Of a stretch of DNA of 31,518 nt, positions 1,354 to 8,610 are shown piece after piece. Position numbers and translations under genes: made by a program. The number at the start of each line of letters is the position of its first letter. Positions within the stretch are counted from its first letter, which is position 1. Source of the stretch: a virus; UHGV virus genome UHGV-0133195; one strand, written 5' to 3'. The notes beneath the pieces were generated by a model. That model made no database searches. It was not told the origin of the DNA and was given only the letters and a program-made list of their open reading frames with translations.

Positions 1354-1656
1354 CTACCCAACCTTTTTCGTCTTTTGGGGCTTCGATGTGCTCTCGCATC
1401 CATTAGGGGAGAGAGCCGGACTGATCTGCCCGGCAGCTTCATTTGTTTCACCATTCATTAACCACGTCGTGTATTTTTTGAACATGGGGTGATTGGTTAT
1501 TTTCATCACGGTATCAATCCCAATATTCTCCCTTCTGCCGAGTTCATACTCCTTTTGTGTTGTCTCCGGTATTCCTGTTAATTCAAAGAATTGAGTTCTG
1601 GTTAGCCCCTCGGATTCTCTTACTTCTCTGATTTTTTTACCTATGCTTGTTGACAT
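1354..1656 (-). CDS. Immunity repressor, P2 C-type (about 100 aa)
   Basis: Small protein adjacent to and co-oriented with int, divergent from the early operon; by recollection resembles P2 C (KYTTWLMNGE and GQISPALS segments). First in-frame ATG at 1656 (MSTSIGKK); the track start at 1695 is a TTG. Confidence 0.7.
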   Translation of the reverse strand: MSTSIGKKIREVRESEGLTRTQFFELTGIPETTQKEYELGRRENIGIDTVMKITNHPMFKKYTTWLMNGETNEAAGQISPALSPNGCESTSKPQKTKKVG

Positions 1657-1710
1657 GGTGGCAATCGCCTCCCTATACTCGCCGCATGGAGGCAATTGCC
1701 GCCATCGTGA

Positions 1711-1768: not shown

Positions 1769-2029
1769 ATGCGGACAAGCAAAACAAAGCCATTGGTGAT
1801 GTCGGTGCAGGGTTGCCCCGTGATTTTTTGCATCCCCCAGCCGCGTATGACCGTTGAGCAGTACGCCCAGATGACCAATCAGGGGTTGAGAGCCGTTCAA
1901 CAGCAAGTTGACGCTGGAAAGTTCATCACTGCTAAAGGCAAATACGGGAAATACCGCGAGATCAATATGGTGGCTGAATTTCTTAAAGAATTCAGGGATG
2001 CGCAGGAAGCATTAAAAGAGAGCGCATAA
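1769..2029 (+). CDS. Cox/Apl-like small DNA-binding protein (excision and switch regulator), putative
   Basis: First gene of the rightward early operon, directly opposite the repressor; GAGGA Shine-Dalgarno 6 nt upstream of the ATG; size and position match P2 Cox; sequence similarity judged by eye only. Confidence 0.5.
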   Translation: MRTSKTKPLVMSVQGCPVIFCIPQPRMTVEQYAQMTNQGLRAVQQQVDAGKFITAKGKYGKYREINMVAEFLKEFRDAQEALKESA

Positions 2030-2067
2030 AAGTATATCCAGTACTTTTCAATTTGACGGAGATCAAC

Positions 2068-2289
2068 ATGGACTTATCACAATGCCCTTCACTTGCCAGC
2101 CTGCTTACCCACGGCCAGCAGATCACCCACCGTCAGCATCAACGCGGCTGGATTGAAACCCCGGACGGGCGTTTCTTCCAGCCTAAAGCGGCAGATGTTC
2201 AATTTGTTAAAAACTGCCGTTTACCGTTTATGTCACGCCCGCGTAATAAGCGCCGCTGGTTTTCCCGCTTAATGGGTATCTTCGCGTAG
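2068..2289 (+). CDS. Hypothetical early protein (73 aa from ATG at 2068)
   Basis: ORF in the early operon with GGAG upstream of the ATG at 2068; the track start at 2053 is a TTG; basic C-terminus; no recognisable motif. Confidence 0.45.
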   Translation: MDLSQCPSLASLLTHGQQITHRQHQRGWIETPDGRFFQPKAADVQFVKNCRLPFMSRPRNKRRWFSRLMGIFA

Positions 2290-2304
2290 TTCGGGGAGGT
2301 GGTT

Positions 2305-2694
2305 ATGTTGATGGATAAAACAGGACAACAGCCCGGCCGCCGCCAGTTCTTAGAGCAACGTGCGCGGCTGCAAGCCAGTTTGAACGCCTCACGTGTGAAT
2401 GACACTGCAACCCGTTTTAACCGCCTGGATGATGCCTGCAAAAAGGTGATTTTCATCCTGGCAAACGATGCGTCCAGATACATAGCCGGAATGCCGAAGC
2501 TGACCGCCAAACAGTTGGGTTGCACTTACGAAAATCTAACCGAAAAGGAGCAAACGTGCCTTTTGATGGGCATTAAGCGCCTTTCCGAATTTGCAGCATC
2601 AATGCCGTGGGAATTTGAGGACTACGCCGCACCACGCGCCGAAATTCAGGCGATACGCGACAAACCACCCGCGCCAGATAACGCAGTCAATTAA
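2305..2694 (+). CDS. Hypothetical early protein (about 129 aa)
   Basis: ORF preceded by GGGGAGG; ATG at 2305 (the track uses a GTG at 2299); function unknown. Confidence 0.5.
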   Translation: MLMDKTGQQPGRRQFLEQRARLQASLNASRVNDTATRFNRLDDACKKVIFILANDASRYIAGMPKLTAKQLGCTYENLTEKEQTCLLMGIKRLSEFAASMPWEFEDYAAPRAEIQAIRDKPPAPDNAVN

Positions 2695-2764: not shown

Positions 2765-3748
2765 ATGATTCGATCTCTCGTTAAATGGCCCGGTGGTAAA
2801 GGCCGCGTTATGCCTGATTTGCTGCCGATTCTGCCGAAAGCCGATTGCCTGGTGGAACCGTTTGTCGGCGGTGCTTCTGTTTTCCTCAATACTGAATATC
2901 GCCGTTATATCCTGGGTGATATCAACCCAGATTTAATTAACCTGTATCGCCAGATAACCCGCTGGCCTGATGCGGTGATCGACGCTGCTCGCCCGCTGTT
3001 TAAAGTGTACGGTGATAAAGACGGCTATAAGTGGATCCGCGACGATTTCAACGCTCGCGCCCATGACCTTCTGTCATCGCGCAATGTGTTTGAGGACGGA
3101 CCGGACGCGGGCAAGATTCTTCGTGCAGCACAGTTTCTTTACCTGAACCGTCACGGATATAACGGCGTAGTGCGCTACAACCAACAGGGCGGATATAACG
3201 TTCCCTTTGGTAGACACAAAACCCCGCCTTACTTCCCGGAAGAACAGATCCGTTTATTCTCTGAAAAAGCTAACGACACGAAAGCTATTTTCGTGTGCTG
3301 CGATTTCCAGAGCACGTTAAAAATCATGATTGGTAGTGACGCAGTTATCTACTGCGATCCGCCATACCTGCCAACAAGCGAAACCGCTAATTTCACCCAA
3401 TACCACACCGCCCCGTTTGGGATTAAAGAGCATCGCCAGTTAGCTGCAGCCCTGCTGGATATTAACCGCCTTACTGGTTCGCCGGTGATCCTGTCCAATA
3501 GCGACACCCCAGCCACCCGCGAGATTTATCGCGCTTTCAACTTCCAGGAAATCAGCGTTAACCGTTCTGTCAGTGCGAACGCCATTACCAGAGGGGCCGC
3601 CAGTGAAGTGATTGGCGTCCTGAAAGTGTGTAGCGGCTGCGGTCGTGCCGGTGGTGGCCGTTGCCCTGATTGTGGCCCTGTCATGGGTAACGCGACCTAT
3701 AACGAAATGCTGGCAACGGCTGCGGCCTATGGCGTGGAGCCGTTCTGA
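2765..3748 (+). CDS. N6-adenine DNA methyltransferase, Dam-like, with C-terminal Cys4 zinc-ribbon-like tail
   Basis: N-terminal WPGGKG and FVGGASVF motifs and catalytic DPPY (CDPPYLP); C-terminal CSGCGRAGGGRCPDCG cluster. Confidence 0.85.
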   Translation: MIRSLVKWPGGKGRVMPDLLPILPKADCLVEPFVGGASVFLNTEYRRYILGDINPDLINLYRQITRWPDAVIDAARPLFKVYGDKDGYKWIRDDFNARAHDLLSSRNVFEDGPDAGKILRAAQFLYLNRHGYNGVVRYNQQGGYNVPFGRHKTPPYFPEEQIRLFSEKANDTKAIFVCCDFQSTLKIMIGSDAVIYCDPPYLPTSETANFTQYHTAPFGIKEHRQLAAALLDINRLTGSPVILSNSDTPATREIYRAFNFQEISVNRSVSANAITRGAASEVIGVLKVCSGCGRAGGGRCPDCGPVMGNATYNEMLATAAAYGVEPF

Positions 3749-3975
3749 TGGTCACAAAACTGCAGATCTCATGCGCTGCGCCGGTAGGTGTCTGCGGTCA
3801 CGCAGCTGCCGAGCTGCGCCGCTTTTCTCGCGGCGTCAAAAACTATTCCCGCATCAAACCAAATTTTTACCTGGTGATCCGCATCGGTAGGCGCTGGCGC
3901 TTGCTGAGTAAAAACGGCGGCAAGGTCTGGTCACTGATGACACATGAAAAATACAACGTTGAGAGCAAGAAATGA
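3748..3975 (+). CDS. Small hypothetical protein (75 aa) translationally coupled between two methyltransferase genes
   Basis: ATG at 3748 overlaps the upstream TGA (ATGA) and its own TGA overlaps the next ATG at 3972; Arg/Lys-rich; no recognisable motif. Confidence 0.45.
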   Translation: MVTKLQISCAAPVGVCGHAAAELRRFSRGVKNYSRIKPNFYLVIRIGRRWRLLSKNGGKVWSLMTHEKYNVESKK

Positions 3976-4862
3976 CCGCTGCTTACTACAACGAAATCGA
4001 TCCATATGCAGCCCAGTGGCTGCGCAACCTTATGGCTGCGGGGTTGATTGCCCCTGGCTTTGTTGATGAAAGGAGTATTGAAGATGTCACACCCGCCGAT
4101 CTGCGCGGATTCACTCAAGTTCACTTCTTTGCCGGGATTGGTGTTTGGTCATATGCCCTGCGCCGCGCTGGCTGGCCGGACTCCAGACCAGTCTGGACAG
4201 GTTCTTGCCCGTGCCAGCCTTTCAGCCCGGCAGGCAAGGGAAAGGGATTTACTGACGAGCGGCACTTATGGCCCGCCATGCATTGGTTGGTTGGGCAGTG
4301 CGATCCTGTCGTTATCTTTGGCGAGCAATCTGCAAGCGCTGACGCAAATGACTGGATCGACCTTGTACAAGCAGACATGGAAGCAATGGGATATGCCTTC
4401 GGGGCGTGTGCGTTTCCGTCTGCGAGCGTCGGCGCACCGCACATCCGTGACAGAGCTTACTGGGTGGCCGACACCAACCGCGAGCAATACAAAGAATGCT
4501 TACCAGGACGCGCAGAAAGTCATTGCGCGGAGGCTTGCTGGCCGTCAGTCGAACTTACAAGATTTTGCCTGTCTGGCGGGGTGGCCTACACCAGCGGCAA
4601 GGGATCACAAAGGGGGGTATCAGGGGGCAGGATGCGCAACGGGAAGCTGTCAACGGACACTCTGGATGTGGTGGCACAGATAGCAGGCCCGGCCCGGTTA
4701 ACGGTTTCTGGGGATCTGCTGACTGGTTGTTCTGCCAGGATGAAAAGTGGCGGCCAGTTGAACCCGAACTTGTCCCGCTGGTTGATGGGGTTGCCTCCAG
4801 AGTGGGACGCCTTCGCGCCTACGGAAACGCCCTCAACGTTGAAGCGGCAACAGCGTTCATAA
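3972..4862 (+). CDS. C5-cytosine DNA methyltransferase (small, phage-type)
   Basis: Motif I-like FFAGIG, motif IV GSCPCQPFSPAGKG (catalytic PCQ), motif VIII-like HIRDRAYW, motif X-like LMGLPPEWD near the C-terminus. Confidence 0.75.
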   Translation: MTAAYYNEIDPYAAQWLRNLMAAGLIAPGFVDERSIEDVTPADLRGFTQVHFFAGIGVWSYALRRAGWPDSRPVWTGSCPCQPFSPAGKGKGFTDERHLWPAMHWLVGQCDPVVIFGEQSASADANDWIDLVQADMEAMGYAFGACAFPSASVGAPHIRDRAYWVADTNREQYKECLPGRAESHCAEACWPSVELTRFCLSGGVAYTSGKGSQRGVSGGRMRNGKLSTDTLDVVAQIAGPARLTVSGDLLTGCSARMKSGGQLNPNLSRWLMGLPPEWDAFAPTETPSTLKRQQRS

Positions 4863-4886
4863 AGGCTTACATGATGGGGGCATCCC

Positions 4887-7523
4887 ATGTCTGACGCCGC
4901 TTTTGCATGGTCCTGGAACGCGCCGCGCCCAGCTGTTGGCCTGTACACCTACGAACCGAAAAAAATCGCCCCGCTTGCCGGGGCGGTGGCGCATCATCCT
5001 GCCGTAAAAAAACACATCGATCACATCTTCAAACGCGCCGGTTACAACCCCGACGATGTTCGCGACCGTAACGCGCTTATCCAGGCGCTGGACAGGTACG
5101 AACCGTGCGGCCTGCCACTGGCCGCCCATCAAAATATAATCCGGCAGGAAATGGAAGCCGCCAAAGCTACGGCGGCAGCCTGGGCCAATACGCCGGAAGG
5201 TGTCGAAGCGCGTTTATTATCAGAGCCGTTCTTCATTCGTGAAGTCTGGCGCAAAAAAATTGAATGGTTACGGGCCAACCGTGAAGCCAGACACACCAAT
5301 GATTTTCTTATGGGGACCGTGAAAAAATCATTGCTGCGTCTTGATGTTGTGCGCACAAGGCAAGGTGTTTCGCCTGATCTCACCGGCGAACTGGCCGCGT
5401 ACTGGTTCGGGCGCTGGCAACGACTGGCTGATTTCACAAAGCGGGAGGCACTAAGCGCCGCTAATGAGATCGCCAGCCGCATGGCTGAAATGCTTGGGAC
5501 GGAATGCGAAGCCCTGGGGCGGAATGTTTCCGACATGAACGTCGAAGAACTGGACTGGCTTTATTGCCACCTGGGCCGCGAAATGCTGGCGCTTCGTATT
5601 GTGCCGCCTGCATGGTATGCGCCGTGGGAACGCGAGCGCATATGCACGGCCATTTTGCGTATGGCTTCGCCTGACTGGTGGGGGCGCAAAATCTGGCGCT
5701 TGCGTTGTGACTGGCGCGAGAACCAGCTGCGTGCTGTTGGCGCGGTAAATAAAAAAGCGCACGCCTACGTTAGCGCTTCCAGCCTGATCGAGTGGCAGGA
5801 ACAGCGCCGTAAAAACCGGGATTTTTTCAAAAGTCATGAACTGGTAGACGAAGACGGCAACGTTTCGTCGCTTGAGGAAATGATTAATAAATCCACGTCT
5901 AACCCGGCTATTCGTCGCCATGAGCTTATGGCCCGAATGGCTGGGGTTGAACTTGTCGCCCAAAGTCGCGGCGATGTTGGCATCTTCCTGACCATTACTT
6001 GCCCGTCGAAATATCACAGCAATATTGCGTCCGGCCACCATAACGCCAAATGGAATCATTCCACCGTCGCCCAGGCGCAGCGCTATTTATGCCGTGTATG
6101 GAACCGGGCAACCGCCAAACTGAAACGCGAAGATTTGCGCCCTTATGGCTTCCGCGTCGCCGAACCGCATCACGATGGGACACCACACTGGCACGCGTTG
6201 CTATTTATGCCACAAGAGCAGGTTAAAGCCACGGTTGCGATCCTTCGCGCCTACTTCATTGCGGAAGACCGCGACGAGCTGGGTCGCAATACCGGTGCTC
6301 GTTTCAAGTCAAAAAAAATGGACCCACGGAAAGGGTCAGCAACGGCGTATATCGCCAAATACATTTCGAAGAATATCGACGGTCACGCGCTGGCCGGTGA
6401 ACTGGACGACGAAAGCGGCAAGCCGCTGAATGAAACAGCCAAATATGCAATGGCCTGGGCGTCACTCCACCGCATCCGCCAGTTTCAGCCCATCGGACAG
6501 CCGCCCATATCGGTTTACCGCGAGCTGCGCAAACTGAGCAATCAGATCACGACCCGCCAGAAAATTGACAATACCTTCAAGCGCGGTGCGCCGTTGCTTG
6601 TGGATCCTGCAATGGATGCGGTTTGCGCCGCTGCCGATGTCGGGTGCTTTGCTACCTACATCATCCGCCAGGGTGGTGTTTTGATCCCGCGTGAAAACTA
6701 TGTCGTCCGTCTGGCCTATCAGCCAGCTGATGAAATGAATGCTTATTGTGAGATCCCCGAAAAGGTTTTCGGGGTCTGGTCGCCGCGTCTGGGTGATGCC
6801 TCCCGTATTTGCACCCGTCTGGTTAAGTGGAAAATCCGCGCCAAATCCAAAGCCACCACCGAGGCCAAAAACGGCCCCGGTTTGGGGGTTGCCCTTTTGC
6901 CGTCGCCAACCGGCGACGCTTGGAGTTCTGTCAATAACTCTACGGAAGACGAAAAAATCACCGATTTTTCACTGTCAGAAATGGCTGTGCCAGCTGACGG
7001 AGAGTTAAAGACAGAAGATTCAGACGATGAAATCGTCGATTTTGAAAATATGGACCAGCCAACGCGGCGCAAATTGATGCGGCGACTACGTGAAACACCA
7101 TTCAAAAGGCAGCAAAGCGGATCACCTTATGAGCCAGGGAGCGAATTAGATGTTGCCTGGCGTTCTGCCGTTGAAAAAACCGAGGCCAGATCGGCGGCTG
7201 ACAAGGCCAGGCGGGCAGCGCTTGCCCCTGCGGTTGCCAGTCTGCTGGCTGATGCGGCGTTGTGTTCGGTTGAGATTTCAGAGATTCAGGCCGTTTCGCT
7301 GTTAATGGGGAGCCGTCTGGAGATTGGCGGCAAAGTTTATCGGGCCAGTGCTGGCGGCCAGTTGATAACGCGTCAATTACCCGATGAGTCACGGACGGTG
7401 AATAAATTATGGGACCGTCTGCGGGATAACCACGGCATAGATGCCACGCGCCTGCGGTTTGATCCGGTCGGGGAGCATCAAAAAATGCTGGCAGGCGCGG
7501 AAGGTCGCCACCCAAAAGAATGA
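4887..7523 (+). CDS. A: Rolling-circle replication initiation endonuclease (P2 gpA-like, HUH superfamily)
   Basis: HUH motif PHWHALLF and paired catalytic tyrosines in AYIAKYISK; 878 aa, last gene of the early operon. Confidence 0.9.
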   Translation: MSDAAFAWSWNAPRPAVGLYTYEPKKIAPLAGAVAHHPAVKKHIDHIFKRAGYNPDDVRDRNALIQALDRYEPCGLPLAAHQNIIRQEMEAAKATAAAWANTPEGVEARLLSEPFFIREVWRKKIEWLRANREARHTNDFLMGTVKKSLLRLDVVRTRQGVSPDLTGELAAYWFGRWQRLADFTKREALSAANEIASRMAEMLGTECEALGRNVSDMNVEELDWLYCHLGREMLALRIVPPAWYAPWERERICTAILRMASPDWWGRKIWRLRCDWRENQLRAVGAVNKKAHAYVSASSLIEWQEQRRKNRDFFKSHELVDEDGNVSSLEEMINKSTSNPAIRRHELMARMAGVELVAQSRGDVGIFLTITCPSKYHSNIASGHHNAKWNHSTVAQAQRYLCRVWNRATAKLKREDLRPYGFRVAEPHHDGTPHWHALLFMPQEQVKATVAILRAYFIAEDRDELGRNTGARFKSKKMDPRKGSATAYIAKYISKNIDGHALAGELDDESGKPLNETAKYAMAWASLHRIRQFQPIGQPPISVYRELRKLSNQITTRQKIDNTFKRGAPLLVDPAMDAVCAAADVGCFATYIIRQGGVLIPRENYVVRLAYQPADEMNAYCEIPEKVFGVWSPRLGDASRICTRLVKWKIRAKSKATTEAKNGPGLGVALLPSPTGDAWSSVNNSTEDEKITDFSLSEMAVPADGELKTEDSDDEIVDFENMDQPTRRKLMRRLRETPFKRQQSGSPYEPGSELDVAWRSAVEKTEARSAADKARRAALAPAVASLLADAALCSVEISEIQAVSLLMGSRLEIGGKVYRASAGGQLITRQLPDESRTVNKLWDRLRDNHGIDATRLRFDPVGEHQKMLAGAEGRHPKE

Positions 7524-7917: not shown

Positions 7918-8610
7918 ATGAGTTACCTGGGAAGTAAAGCGGCCAGCGGGGTCTTTCAGAAAATCATTGCCGAAATGCCCCCGCATGATACCTACATTGA
8001 AACGCATCTGGGCAGCGGTGCGGTGATGTTCCATAAACCGCCAGCCCAGCATTCTGTCGGGATTGATATTGATTCAGCTGCATTTTCGCTGACAAGGCGG
8101 CGCTGGAAAGATAAAGGATTAACGCCCCCTGACATCCATTTCCATTATGGCGATGCTGTCAGCTTTCTGGAGGGATATTTTGATTTTGCGACTGCGGGCC
8201 GGGTACTGATTTACGCCGATCCTCCTTACATGCCGGAAACGCGCACCAGTCGCGCCCGTTATCGCCATGAATACACCGTCGCCGATCATGAGCGCCTTTT
8301 ACGTTGCCTGATGTCACTGCCGGAAAATGTGAGTGTCATTTTGTCTGGCTACCCGTCGCAGCTTTATGACAGCACGCTGACCGGCTGGCGAACGCGGGAA
8401 TTTCAGGCCATGACGCGGGGCGGTGTGCGAACGGAAAAAATCTGGATGAATTATGAGGAAGGGAAAGCCTATTCCCACACCTTTGCCGGAAAGGACTACA
8501 ACGACCGGGCCAGGATAAAACGTAAAGCGGCACGCTGGCGGGATAAGTTCGCCGCCCTGCCGCCAGCGGAACGGCTGGCAATTATGACCGCGCTTTGTGA
8601 TGTCGAATAA
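7918..8610 (+). CDS. Second Dam-like N6-adenine DNA methyltransferase (short, 230 aa)
   Basis: YLGSKAAS and THLGSGAVMF motifs followed by catalytic DPPY (YADPPYMP); GGGAAAG Shine-Dalgarno upstream. Confidence 0.8.
   Translation: MSYLGSKAASGVFQKIIAEMPPHDTYIETHLGSGAVMFHKPPAQHSVGIDIDSAAFSLTRRRWKDKGLTPPDIHFHYGDAVSFLEGYFDFATAGRVLIYADPPYMPETRTSRARYRHEYTVADHERLLRCLMSLPENVSVILSGYPSQLYDSTLTGWRTREFQAMTRGGVRTEKIWMNYEEGKAYSHTFAGKDYNDRARIKRKAARWRDKFAALPPAERLAIMTALCDVE

Follow-up and report, generated by a model that had tools for sequence, protein, structure and literature searches.

Cytosine-C5 DNA methyltransferases (C5 methylases) composed of two polypeptides provide the background for our analysis of a methylase locus in a 31,518-nucleotide viral DNA, UHGV virus genome UHGV-0133195. 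This whole stretch is called the window below, and all coordinates are on its scale. One such enzyme, M.EcoHK31I, comes from Escherichia coli HK31 and has the recognition sequence YGGCCR. Lee, Kam and Shaw reportedly described in 1995 an alpha chain of 309 amino acids and a beta chain of 176. The nested alpha/beta architecture is said to have been known since that year for this one restriction-modification enzyme, and for that reason the family that we describe is a further case of an already known architecture, one that is under-annotated in public records. In M.EcoHK31I, motifs I-VIII and X are on alpha and motif IX is on beta, and both chains are required (PMC2836561; PMC3404938). The beta gene lies wholly inside the alpha gene in another reading frame, and alternative internal starts are used in beta (PMC2836561; PMC3404938). 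M.AquI is also a natural C5 methylase of two polypeptides (PMC3404938). Our literature searches for overprinting or phage accounts of a dual-frame C5 layout found nothing, and a search for "Mte8" returned nothing relevant.

A first-pass annotation of the window proposed a three-gene methyltransferase cassette. Its three plus-strand open reading frames (ORFs) exist, at 2765-3748 (327 amino acids), 3748-3975 (75 amino acids) and 3972-4862 (296 amino acids), but a fourth coding sequence, nested in the +1 frame of the third (ATG at 4084 to a stop at 4683 in this copy), was overlooked. The region most likely encodes four proteins rather than three. The cassette is a typical methylase set of a P2-like early operon, and its interest lies in the nested gene, which we call beta, and in the disruption of that gene, not in the 75-amino-acid ORF. 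Taken as a whole, the locus is quite probably a P2-like early operon that encodes a Dam methylase, a 75-amino-acid protein of RelE/ParE fold and a nested alpha/beta C5 methylase, the last of these broken here by the loss of one G.

The cytosine methyltransferase locus

The features of the C5 methylase locus are as follows.

3972..4862, plus strand: frameshift-fusion ORF of 296 amino acids, made of alpha residues 1-218 and the last 78 residues of beta
4071..4076, plus strand: AAGGAG, the Shine-Dalgarno (SD) sequence of beta, within alpha codons E33-R34-S35
4084..4683, plus strand: nested +1-frame beta ORF, 199 amino acids here (259 when intact, ending at 4862), with an N-terminal block GSTLYK..RLRAS..RTS and two GWPTP repeats
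4128-4142, plus strand: motif I, alpha frame 0
4209-4226, plus strand: motif IV, alpha frame 0
4320-4328, plus strand: motif VI, alpha frame 0
4440-4454, plus strand: motif VIII, alpha frame 0
4623..4627, plus strand: G5 run (G6 in phage SI7); the one-nucleotide deletion shifts both overlapping frames
4628..4894, plus strand: stranded alpha C-terminus, read in window frame +2; motif X, YGNALNVEAATAFI, occupies 4820-4861, and the stop of this segment overlaps the start of gene A (ATGTCTGA)
4758-4805, plus strand: motif-IX-like segment LNPNLSRWLMGLPPEW in the fused ORF

The proposed C5-cytosine methyltransferase fold was borne out by profile search, in which DNA_methylase (PF00145) matched ORF 3972-4862 over motifs IV-VIII (E = 1e-10; 41.7 bits, cut-off 22). 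The sequences FAGIG, PCQPFS, GEQ and HIRDR lie within residues 53-161 of this one chain. GEQ and HIRDR had been singled out as non-canonical. They are indeed present, at residues 117-119 and 157-161, and align with ENV and QKRER of M.HhaI, but they are not oddities of this copy: because they are invariant or nearly so across relatives, we regard them as family traits. A profile of the fused type aligned to PDB sequences over motifs IV-VIII only, matching M.HhaI residues 72-178 (E = 4e-16). The TIGR00675 dcm superfamily model scored 26.3 bits, below its cut-off of 100.65, for the window and SI7 forms alike. There is no endonuclease gene among the neighbours, which are Dam, the ParE-like ORF and gene A; the enzyme is an orphan phage methylase.

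Translation of the window in three frames yields methylase-like sequence in every frame. Frame 0 contains motifs I, IV, VI and VIII and, later on, LNPNLSRWLMGLPPEW, again in frame 0. Frame +1 contains GSTLYK...GWPTP...GWPTPAARDHKGG, and motif X, YGNALNVEAATAFI, is in frame +2. In Salmonella phage SI7, where the run has six Gs, frame 0 is a 307-amino-acid alpha that ends in motif X; it terminates at the equivalent of window position 4894 and overlaps gene A by 8 nucleotides. Frame +1 of SI7 is a continuous ORF of 271 codons, corresponding to beta. Peptides of the beta frame include STLYKQTWK and LSTDTLDVVAQIAGPAR.

The "short" cytosine methylase is thus not one natural gene. The window is one G short of SI7 at 4623-4627, which makes ORF 3972-4862 a frameshift fusion whose tail comes from the beta frame. 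The first-pass annotation took this ORF for a single, short, non-canonical C5 methylase with the 75-amino-acid ORF as its specificity or regulatory partner. Such a reading would account for the open ORF, for the PF00145 match over motifs IV-VIII and for the overlapping stops and starts that join the three ORFs. It is extremely improbable, however, given that the tail is read from another gene's frame, that motif X lies in a different frame, and that a census of relatives, given below, contradicts it. Moreover, the 75-amino-acid gene encodes a RelE/ParE fold and occurs, at varied positions, in prophages that have no C5 methylase.

Conservation of the nested frame

Two sets of relatives were compared. 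The viral set consists of 85 other phage or viral loci, including N15 gp58, SEN5, ESSI2_ev129 and Pseudomonas phage PMG1. The genomic set consists of 80 bacterial genomes from Gamma-, Beta-, Alpha- and Deltaproteobacteria, picked on the alpha N-terminal domain alone. All 85 viral loci have the alpha N-terminus and motif X in frame 0 and a GSTLYK..WPTP..WLMGLP peptide in frame +1, and both frames are uninterrupted in every one of them; the window alone differs. The same layout is found in 77 of the 80 genomic loci, the remainder being one truncated contig and two disrupted loci (2/79 complete loci). Motif X (GNxV) is joined to motifs I-VIII in one chain in SI7, in 85/85 viral relatives and in 77/80 genomic relatives, and is not so joined in the window. 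The conserved +1 ORF ranges from 221 to 353 codons among relatives.

It could be supposed that the +1 ORF is a non-coding by-product of base composition and of constraint on alpha, and that the missing G is an assembly error. These genes are GC-rich (0.52-0.66), and codon-shuffled versions sometimes have long +1 runs (median 119 codons, 95th percentile 230). In the real sequences, however, the median length of the longest open +1 run is 294 codons, and none of the 85 loci falls below 221. This explanation is scarcely credible in view of three further observations: nucleotide variation follows the beta frame where alpha is unconserved, the codons that create the SD sequence and start of beta are biased, and the frameshift allele occurs in independent assemblies (NCBI, ENA, JGI and Logan).

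Both overlapping frames are under selection, since synonymous variation in alpha is suppressed and the pattern by codon position follows beta. The fraction of synonymous differences in alpha is 0.5-0.6 in codons 1-75, falls to 0.2-0.35 in codons 78-165 and 245-280, and recovers past codon 285. The low values coincide with overlap by the conserved part of beta, and the recovery lies past beta's conserved end. Between motifs VIII and X, alpha identity is only 0.12-0.26 with many insertions and deletions, and beta is conserved. Nucleotides of this alpha linker vary most at beta codon position 3 and least at beta codon position 2. The first ~45 residues of beta have no sign of selection of their own.

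The coding sequence for the conserved alpha residues D-E-R-S-I-E-D-V, read in the +1 frame, gives AAGGAG, 7 nucleotides and ATG. A beta ATG is found at the aligned position in 60 of 83 relatives, 49 of which also have an SD sequence. Alpha D38 is encoded by GAT, which creates the beta ATG, in 72/83 relatives (87%). Alpha R34 is encoded by AGG in 28/83 and by CGG in 21/83, codons that create the SD sequence (together 49/83, 59%), and AGG is used at 3/340 (1%) of the other arginine codons within alpha codons 1-75.

Another way to join these segments would be programmed frameshifting, in which the ribosome moves from frame 0 to frame +1 after motif VIII and back before motif X, producing a canonical single chain (motifs I-VIII, target-recognition domain, IX, X) and no separate beta. 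The order of motifs along the DNA is colinear with that of single-chain enzymes, and the IX-like and X segments abut in overlapping frames, as such a mechanism would have it. We nonetheless consider it very unlikely. The +1 frame is open and conserved for ~100 codons upstream of motif VIII, with dual constraint, and an SD sequence and ATG are conserved at alpha codons 33-39. Frame 0 also stays open across the unconserved linker in all loci. In the case of M.EcoHK31I, methylation in vivo was restored when alpha and beta were supplied from separate genes (PMC2836561).

The GWPTP repeats of beta proteins vary by insertion of whole units, with 2 to 4 copies (beta alignment columns 160-400). Some phage C5 methylases have target-recognition domains of a similarly modular and possibly multispecific kind. 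Because it is in beta that the repeat number varies, the data suggest that target recognition resides in beta rather than in the alpha linker.

Database searches place beta in a large family, with 5748 matching clusters. Among the 120 best, none has a Pfam domain, and where a name is given it is "hypothetical" or "uncharacterised". Beta also matches PHROG families annotated "DNA methyltransferase", and PADLOC made no defence-system assignment for it. The records of N15 gp58 (L003), SEN5_42 (L005), ev129 dcm (L002) and SI7 annotate the alpha frame only. In the record of Pseudomonas phage PMG1 (L004, 1010-1922), the annotated gene PMG1_00057 is the beta frame, and alpha has an N-terminal frameshift there. 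We had considered PMG1 as an instance of a free-standing beta gene and rejected it, as the alpha frame is also present.

In the architecture that we propose, the alpha chain, encoded in frame 0, would run from motifs I, IV, VI and VIII through an unconserved linker to motif X. Beta, probably translated from its own SD sequence and ATG inside alpha codons 33-39, would begin with a conserved N-terminal block and continue through 2-4 GWPTP repeats, the probable target-recognition elements, to a helix resembling motif IX. By the precedent of M.EcoHK31I, alpha and beta presumably assemble into one enzyme, in which beta would supply the small domain normally found between motifs VIII and X.

The G5 frameshift allele

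Loss of one G at 4623-4627 affects both chains. Alpha residues 1-218 run into the last 78 residues of beta, with loss of motif X, and beta stops at 4683 after 199 amino acids, with loss of the IX-like segment. Motif X is left in an ORF that has no plausible start or SD sequence. The stop of the fused ORF is now 24 nucleotides upstream of the gene A start, and the overlap with gene A is gone. As alpha lacks motif X and beta lacks its motif-IX-like segment, the C5 methylase is most likely non-functional, and the lost G probably renders it inactive in this clonal prophage lineage. For the C5 enzyme of the G5 allele, the anti-restriction or epigenetic role that had been suggested for the cassette is doubtful.

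The G5 allele is real but clonal. It is real because the exact fused protein is found on 20 contigs from assemblies in NCBI, ENA, JGI and Logan, and clonal because the three G5 flanks compared (4.7-6.9 kb) are 100% identical to the window. The intact 307-amino-acid protein has the larger cluster, which comprises 46 member sequences from 32 contigs.

G5 could conceivably be functional or switchable, either through phase variation, in which slippage in the G run alternates between alpha/beta, alpha-beta and beta-alpha fusions, or because the fused protein works together with the fragments. Alleles with G5 (the window) and G6 (SI7) both exist, as does a beta-to-alpha fusion at the same site (P0077), which is consistent with G7, the product that a one-G insertion would give. 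Fusion-type proteins recur across many taxa, and fragment complementation is documented for C5 methylases (PMC3404938). However, a phase-variable locus would have a long, conserved repeat tract with several length alleles within populations, whereas this tract, which stems from Gly-Gly codons, is just 5-6 nucleotides long, and most relatives lack it (runs of <=3 in 13/22 relatives with the motif). The three identical flanks represent one clone, motif X has neither start nor SD sequence, and disrupted alpha/beta loci are rare in the unbiased census (2/79 complete loci). Phase variation or retained function is therefore unlikely, and we interpret G5 as ordinary slippage damage, since the tract is unconserved in the family and the allele is clonal.

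Independent frameshift alleles of the alpha/beta locus exist elsewhere (L086, L093 and L138). In a Klebsiella prophage (L086 1501-2560, CP185201.1), alpha 1-170 is fused to the beta target-recognition domain and IX-like segment, with motif X in a third frame. Klebsiella assemblies repeatedly contain members of a cluster of such fusion proteins, ~327 amino acids long. We considered that fused proteins with alpha, target-recognition and IX segments might form a natural single-chain lineage and rejected this for L086, the one locus examined in DNA: its fusion is a frameshift product, because motif X persists in a third frame.

Several points weigh against a nested two-chain enzyme that is dead in this copy. 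AlphaFold2 applied to beta alone, with an alignment of 25 sequences, gave an uninformative model with a predicted local distance difference test score (pLDDT) of 33. Beta matched nothing in Pfam, and a beta profile searched against PDB sequences retrieved only spurious G-protein-coupled receptor matches (E > 1). The assignment of motif IX rests on one weak hhalign alignment, of QLNPNLSRWLMGLPPEW..YGNA to M.HhaI 273-307, which is in the expected register at E = 0.09; residues 4-32 and 72-178 of the M.HhaI sequence used there agree with a separate M.HhaI alignment. A virtual IX-X profile, built from beta tails and alpha motif X, had no HMMER matches in the PDB. C5 methylases also tolerate fragment complementation (PMC3404938), so the three pieces of the G5 allele could retain some activity. 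Lastly, alpha-to-beta fusion alleles make up 70 of the top 120 matches to the fused query, a ranking that is biased toward them.

Operon context

Over the 2.4 kb spanning the cassette, the window shares 99.2% identity with three Salmonella phages (SI7, SW3 and SW5; Peduoviridae, Irrigatiovirus), which also have the genes in the same order: integrase, repressor, cox, Fil-like ORF, ORF of unknown function, Dam, 75-amino-acid ORF, cytosine methylase and gene A. A second adenine methylase follows further along, after gene A, in the window and in SI7, SW3 and SW5. The window is a P2-like (Irrigatiovirus) prophage with the cassette in the middle of its early operon. The features of this operon are as follows.

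1650..1679, plus strand: sigma-70 promoter-like site, TTGACA-18-TATACT (11/12), a candidate for the early promoter driving cox to gene A
1769-2029, plus strand: cox-like ORF, directly downstream of the promoter-like site
2053-2289, plus strand: Fil-like ORF between cox and Dam (Pfam Phage_186_Fil in the identical locus L087)
2299-2694, plus strand: 131-amino-acid ORF between cox and Dam (phrog_7428, function unknown)
2765..3748, plus strand: Dam-family (D12 class) N6-adenine DNA methyltransferase, 327 amino acids
3629..3700, plus strand: Cys4 module CxxCGxxGGGxCPxCGPVMGxxTY of 24 residues, Dam residues 289-312, a presumed zinc ribbon
3748..3975, plus strand: 75-amino-acid basic protein of RelE/ParE fold (Pfam ParE_like, phrog_1525)
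4887..7523, plus strand: P2 gene-A-type replication initiator at the downstream end of the chain (PF05840 Phage_GPA)

The view that these genes share an early transcript with the replication gene agrees with the promoter-like site at 1650-1679 upstream and the gene A homologue downstream. An early-operon setting is reasonable because the strong promoter-like site lies upstream of cox and we found no convincing plus-strand terminator between 1650-1679 and gene A. Both junctions within the cassette had been described as ATGA. The second is, at 3972-3975, but the first is TGATG at 3746-3750 (TGA 3746-3748, ATG 3748-3750). These stop/start overlaps are compatible with translational coupling of the chained genes.

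A strong terminator-like hairpin on the minus strand lies at 4967-4985 (7 G-C pairs followed by T7), within the 5' end of gene A; on the plus strand it reads as A7 followed by the hairpin. The third methyltransferase gene, at 7918-8610 on the plus strand, downstream of gene A, encodes 230 amino acids and is called "DNA methylase" in SI7. Its product has a partial D12-class match (PF02086, E = 1e-5) and matches phrog_56 (E = 3e-35) and the PADLOC model MTase_II (E = 4e-28). The slot directly upstream of gene A, filled here by the C5 methylase, holds a gene of the 3'-phosphoadenosine-5'-phosphosulfate (PAPS) reductase family in some P2-like prophages (L175 4046-5068).

The 75-amino-acid RelE/ParE-fold protein

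The 75-amino-acid ORF is a real, conserved gene. Compared with a Klebsiella homologue, it has 27, 21 and 46 differences at codon positions 1, 2 and 3, and its homologues form 58 clusters, nearly all of exactly 75 amino acids; those named by organism are all from Enterobacteriaceae. The protein is basic, as previously described (16 K/R vs 3 D/E). It matches Pfam ParE_like (PF24732, E = 1.7e-18, above gathering) and phrog_1525, and structure prediction with AlphaFold2 gave a model of RelE/ParE fold with a pLDDT of 90. The family had no matches among PDB sequences, and PADLOC made no defence-system assignment for the protein. Invariant residues are H66, Y69, R45 and further basic ones, which is compatible with an RNA-directed activity.

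In Klebsiella prophages the homologue lies between an exonuclease gene and a 64-amino-acid ORF, upstream of Dam, and the operon often has no C5 methylase. In other cases the homologue comes after Dam and a 66-amino-acid ORF, with a PAPS-reductase gene in the methylase's place. Because neighbours differ between prophages and the C5 methylase is often absent, the protein is not a methylase partner and has no evident antitoxin; the suggestion that it serves as the specificity or regulatory partner of the methylase does not survive its fold and its variable, frequently methylase-free context. No consistent adjacent antitoxin was found, as the 64- and 66-amino-acid neighbours show no relationship to one another or to the tail of Dam, and no antitoxin Pfam domain was called among the gene's neighbours. 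The Dam Cys4 tail and the adjacent small ORFs were considered as antitoxins of the ParE-like protein and rejected, there being no consistent partner across prophages.

This protein is probably an independent accessory early gene product rather than a methylase subunit. The gene would be transcribed only from the early promoter, which is presumably repressed in the lysogen, and because of this repression the protein may be able to do without an antitoxin. Confined as it is to a repressed early operon, this solitary RelE/ParE-fold gene would offer a tractable case of a toxin fold without an antitoxin.

The Dam methylase and its Cys4 module

The predicted Dam-like fold was upheld by profile searches, which matched the D12/Dam family over its full length and above cut-offs: PF02086 aligned to residues 8-268 at profile positions 1-252 of 253 (E = 7e-58; 196.8 bits, cut-off 22), and TIGR00571 scored 259.1 bits against a cut-off of 114.85. 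The motif DPPY is at residues 198-201, and the glycine-rich sequence EPFVGGASVF, which binds S-adenosylmethionine, starts at residue 31. The best PADLOC match is an orphan-methylase model (E = 9e-88). With the host-Dam equivalog NF008152 the protein scores 258.8 bits, under the cut-off of 441, and is thus a member of the family and not a host-type orthologue. Dam probably methylates GATC on phage DNA following induction or infection, and an anti-restriction or epigenetic role is plausible for it.

The C-terminal 40 residues of Dam lie outside the methylase fold and contain the Cys4 cluster reported earlier, C-x2-C-x7-C-x2-C at residues 289-303 (nucleotides 3629-3673). This tail matches residues 526-555 of the RecE/ExoVIII model (NF007259), as well as two exonuclease families of PHROG. 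Among 1.8 billion cluster representatives searched, 27 clusters (P0299-P0325) have the ~30-residue module, which reads CxxCGxxGGGxCPDCGPVMGxxTY. It occurs at the C-termini of other Dam proteins, inside RecE-like and Rv2179c-like 3'-5' exonucleases, and in small stand-alone proteins. The module is thus a mobile unit that DNA enzymes of prophage early regions have in common. Several copies terminate with F after an acidic stretch (EPF, EAF, EGF). Zinc binding and a recruiting role are presumed for the module.

Implications

For annotation, the gene called a C5 "methylase" in this prophage and its relatives would be only half of an enzyme, the other half being an unannotated overlapping gene. Assignment of methylomes to genes, and cloning of alpha alone, would consequently fail. 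The breadth of the alpha/beta family may be underappreciated, because each phage record that we examined annotates a single frame of the two. A broader proposition is possible, although we hold it only tentatively: that nested beta is family-wide, such that the DNA-recognition (small) domain of thousands of orphan C5 methylases in prophages across Proteobacteria is encoded by a same-strand overlapping gene of ~250 codons within the gene for the catalytic subunit, largely missed or mis-framed by PGAP, GenBank phage records and Pfam, and that single-base slippage recurrently yields alpha-beta and beta-alpha fusions with possibly altered or regulated activity.

For the evolution of overlapping genes, the locus offers a pair of ~250 codons that is both large and deeply conserved and whose functional logic is clear. 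It amounts to a domain insertion read in a second frame, with the host chain crossing the same stretch as a linker. The lysogen that carries the window most likely has no prophage-encoded C5 methylation; with that function lost, only Dam and the second adenine methylase would add phage-encoded methylation.

Comparison with known systems

Like E. coli Dam and the orphan Dam methylases of phages, the window Dam has a full-length D12/Dam match with DPPY. It differs from E. coli Dam in falling under the host equivalog cut-off (259 vs 441 bits), and from both groups in its extra C-terminal Cys4 module, such as is found in RecE-type exonucleases. Type II toxins of the RelE/ParE superfamily (RelE, YafQ, HigB, YoeB and ParE) have 84-121 amino acids, compared with 75 here. 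Unlike them, the window gene has no conserved adjacent antitoxin gene and sits in a phage early operon.

Escherichia phage N15 gp58 and the Dcm-like genes of the P2-like phages SI7, SEN5 and ESSI2_ev129 belong to the same family as the C5 methylase locus and share its dual-frame layout. Their frames are intact, whereas the window has the G5 frameshift. In M.AquI the split is linear, with motifs I-VIII in alpha and IX-X in beta; unlike the layout here, beta is not nested and alpha does not resume after it.

M.EcoHK31I is similar in its described architecture, in that a second chain is nested within alpha in another frame, and its alpha is also of similar size, reportedly 309 amino acids compared with 307 in SI7. 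The beta chains differ, with 259 amino acids here and reportedly 176 in M.EcoHK31I. Unlike that of M.EcoHK31I, beta in this family starts within the coding region of motif I and overlaps motifs IV-VIII. The target-recognition repeats are apparently in beta here, whereas the target-recognition domain of M.EcoHK31I has been assigned to alpha. Finally, M.EcoHK31I belongs to a restriction-modification system, whereas the methylase described here is an orphan in a phage early operon without a restriction partner, and the copy in the window is frameshifted.

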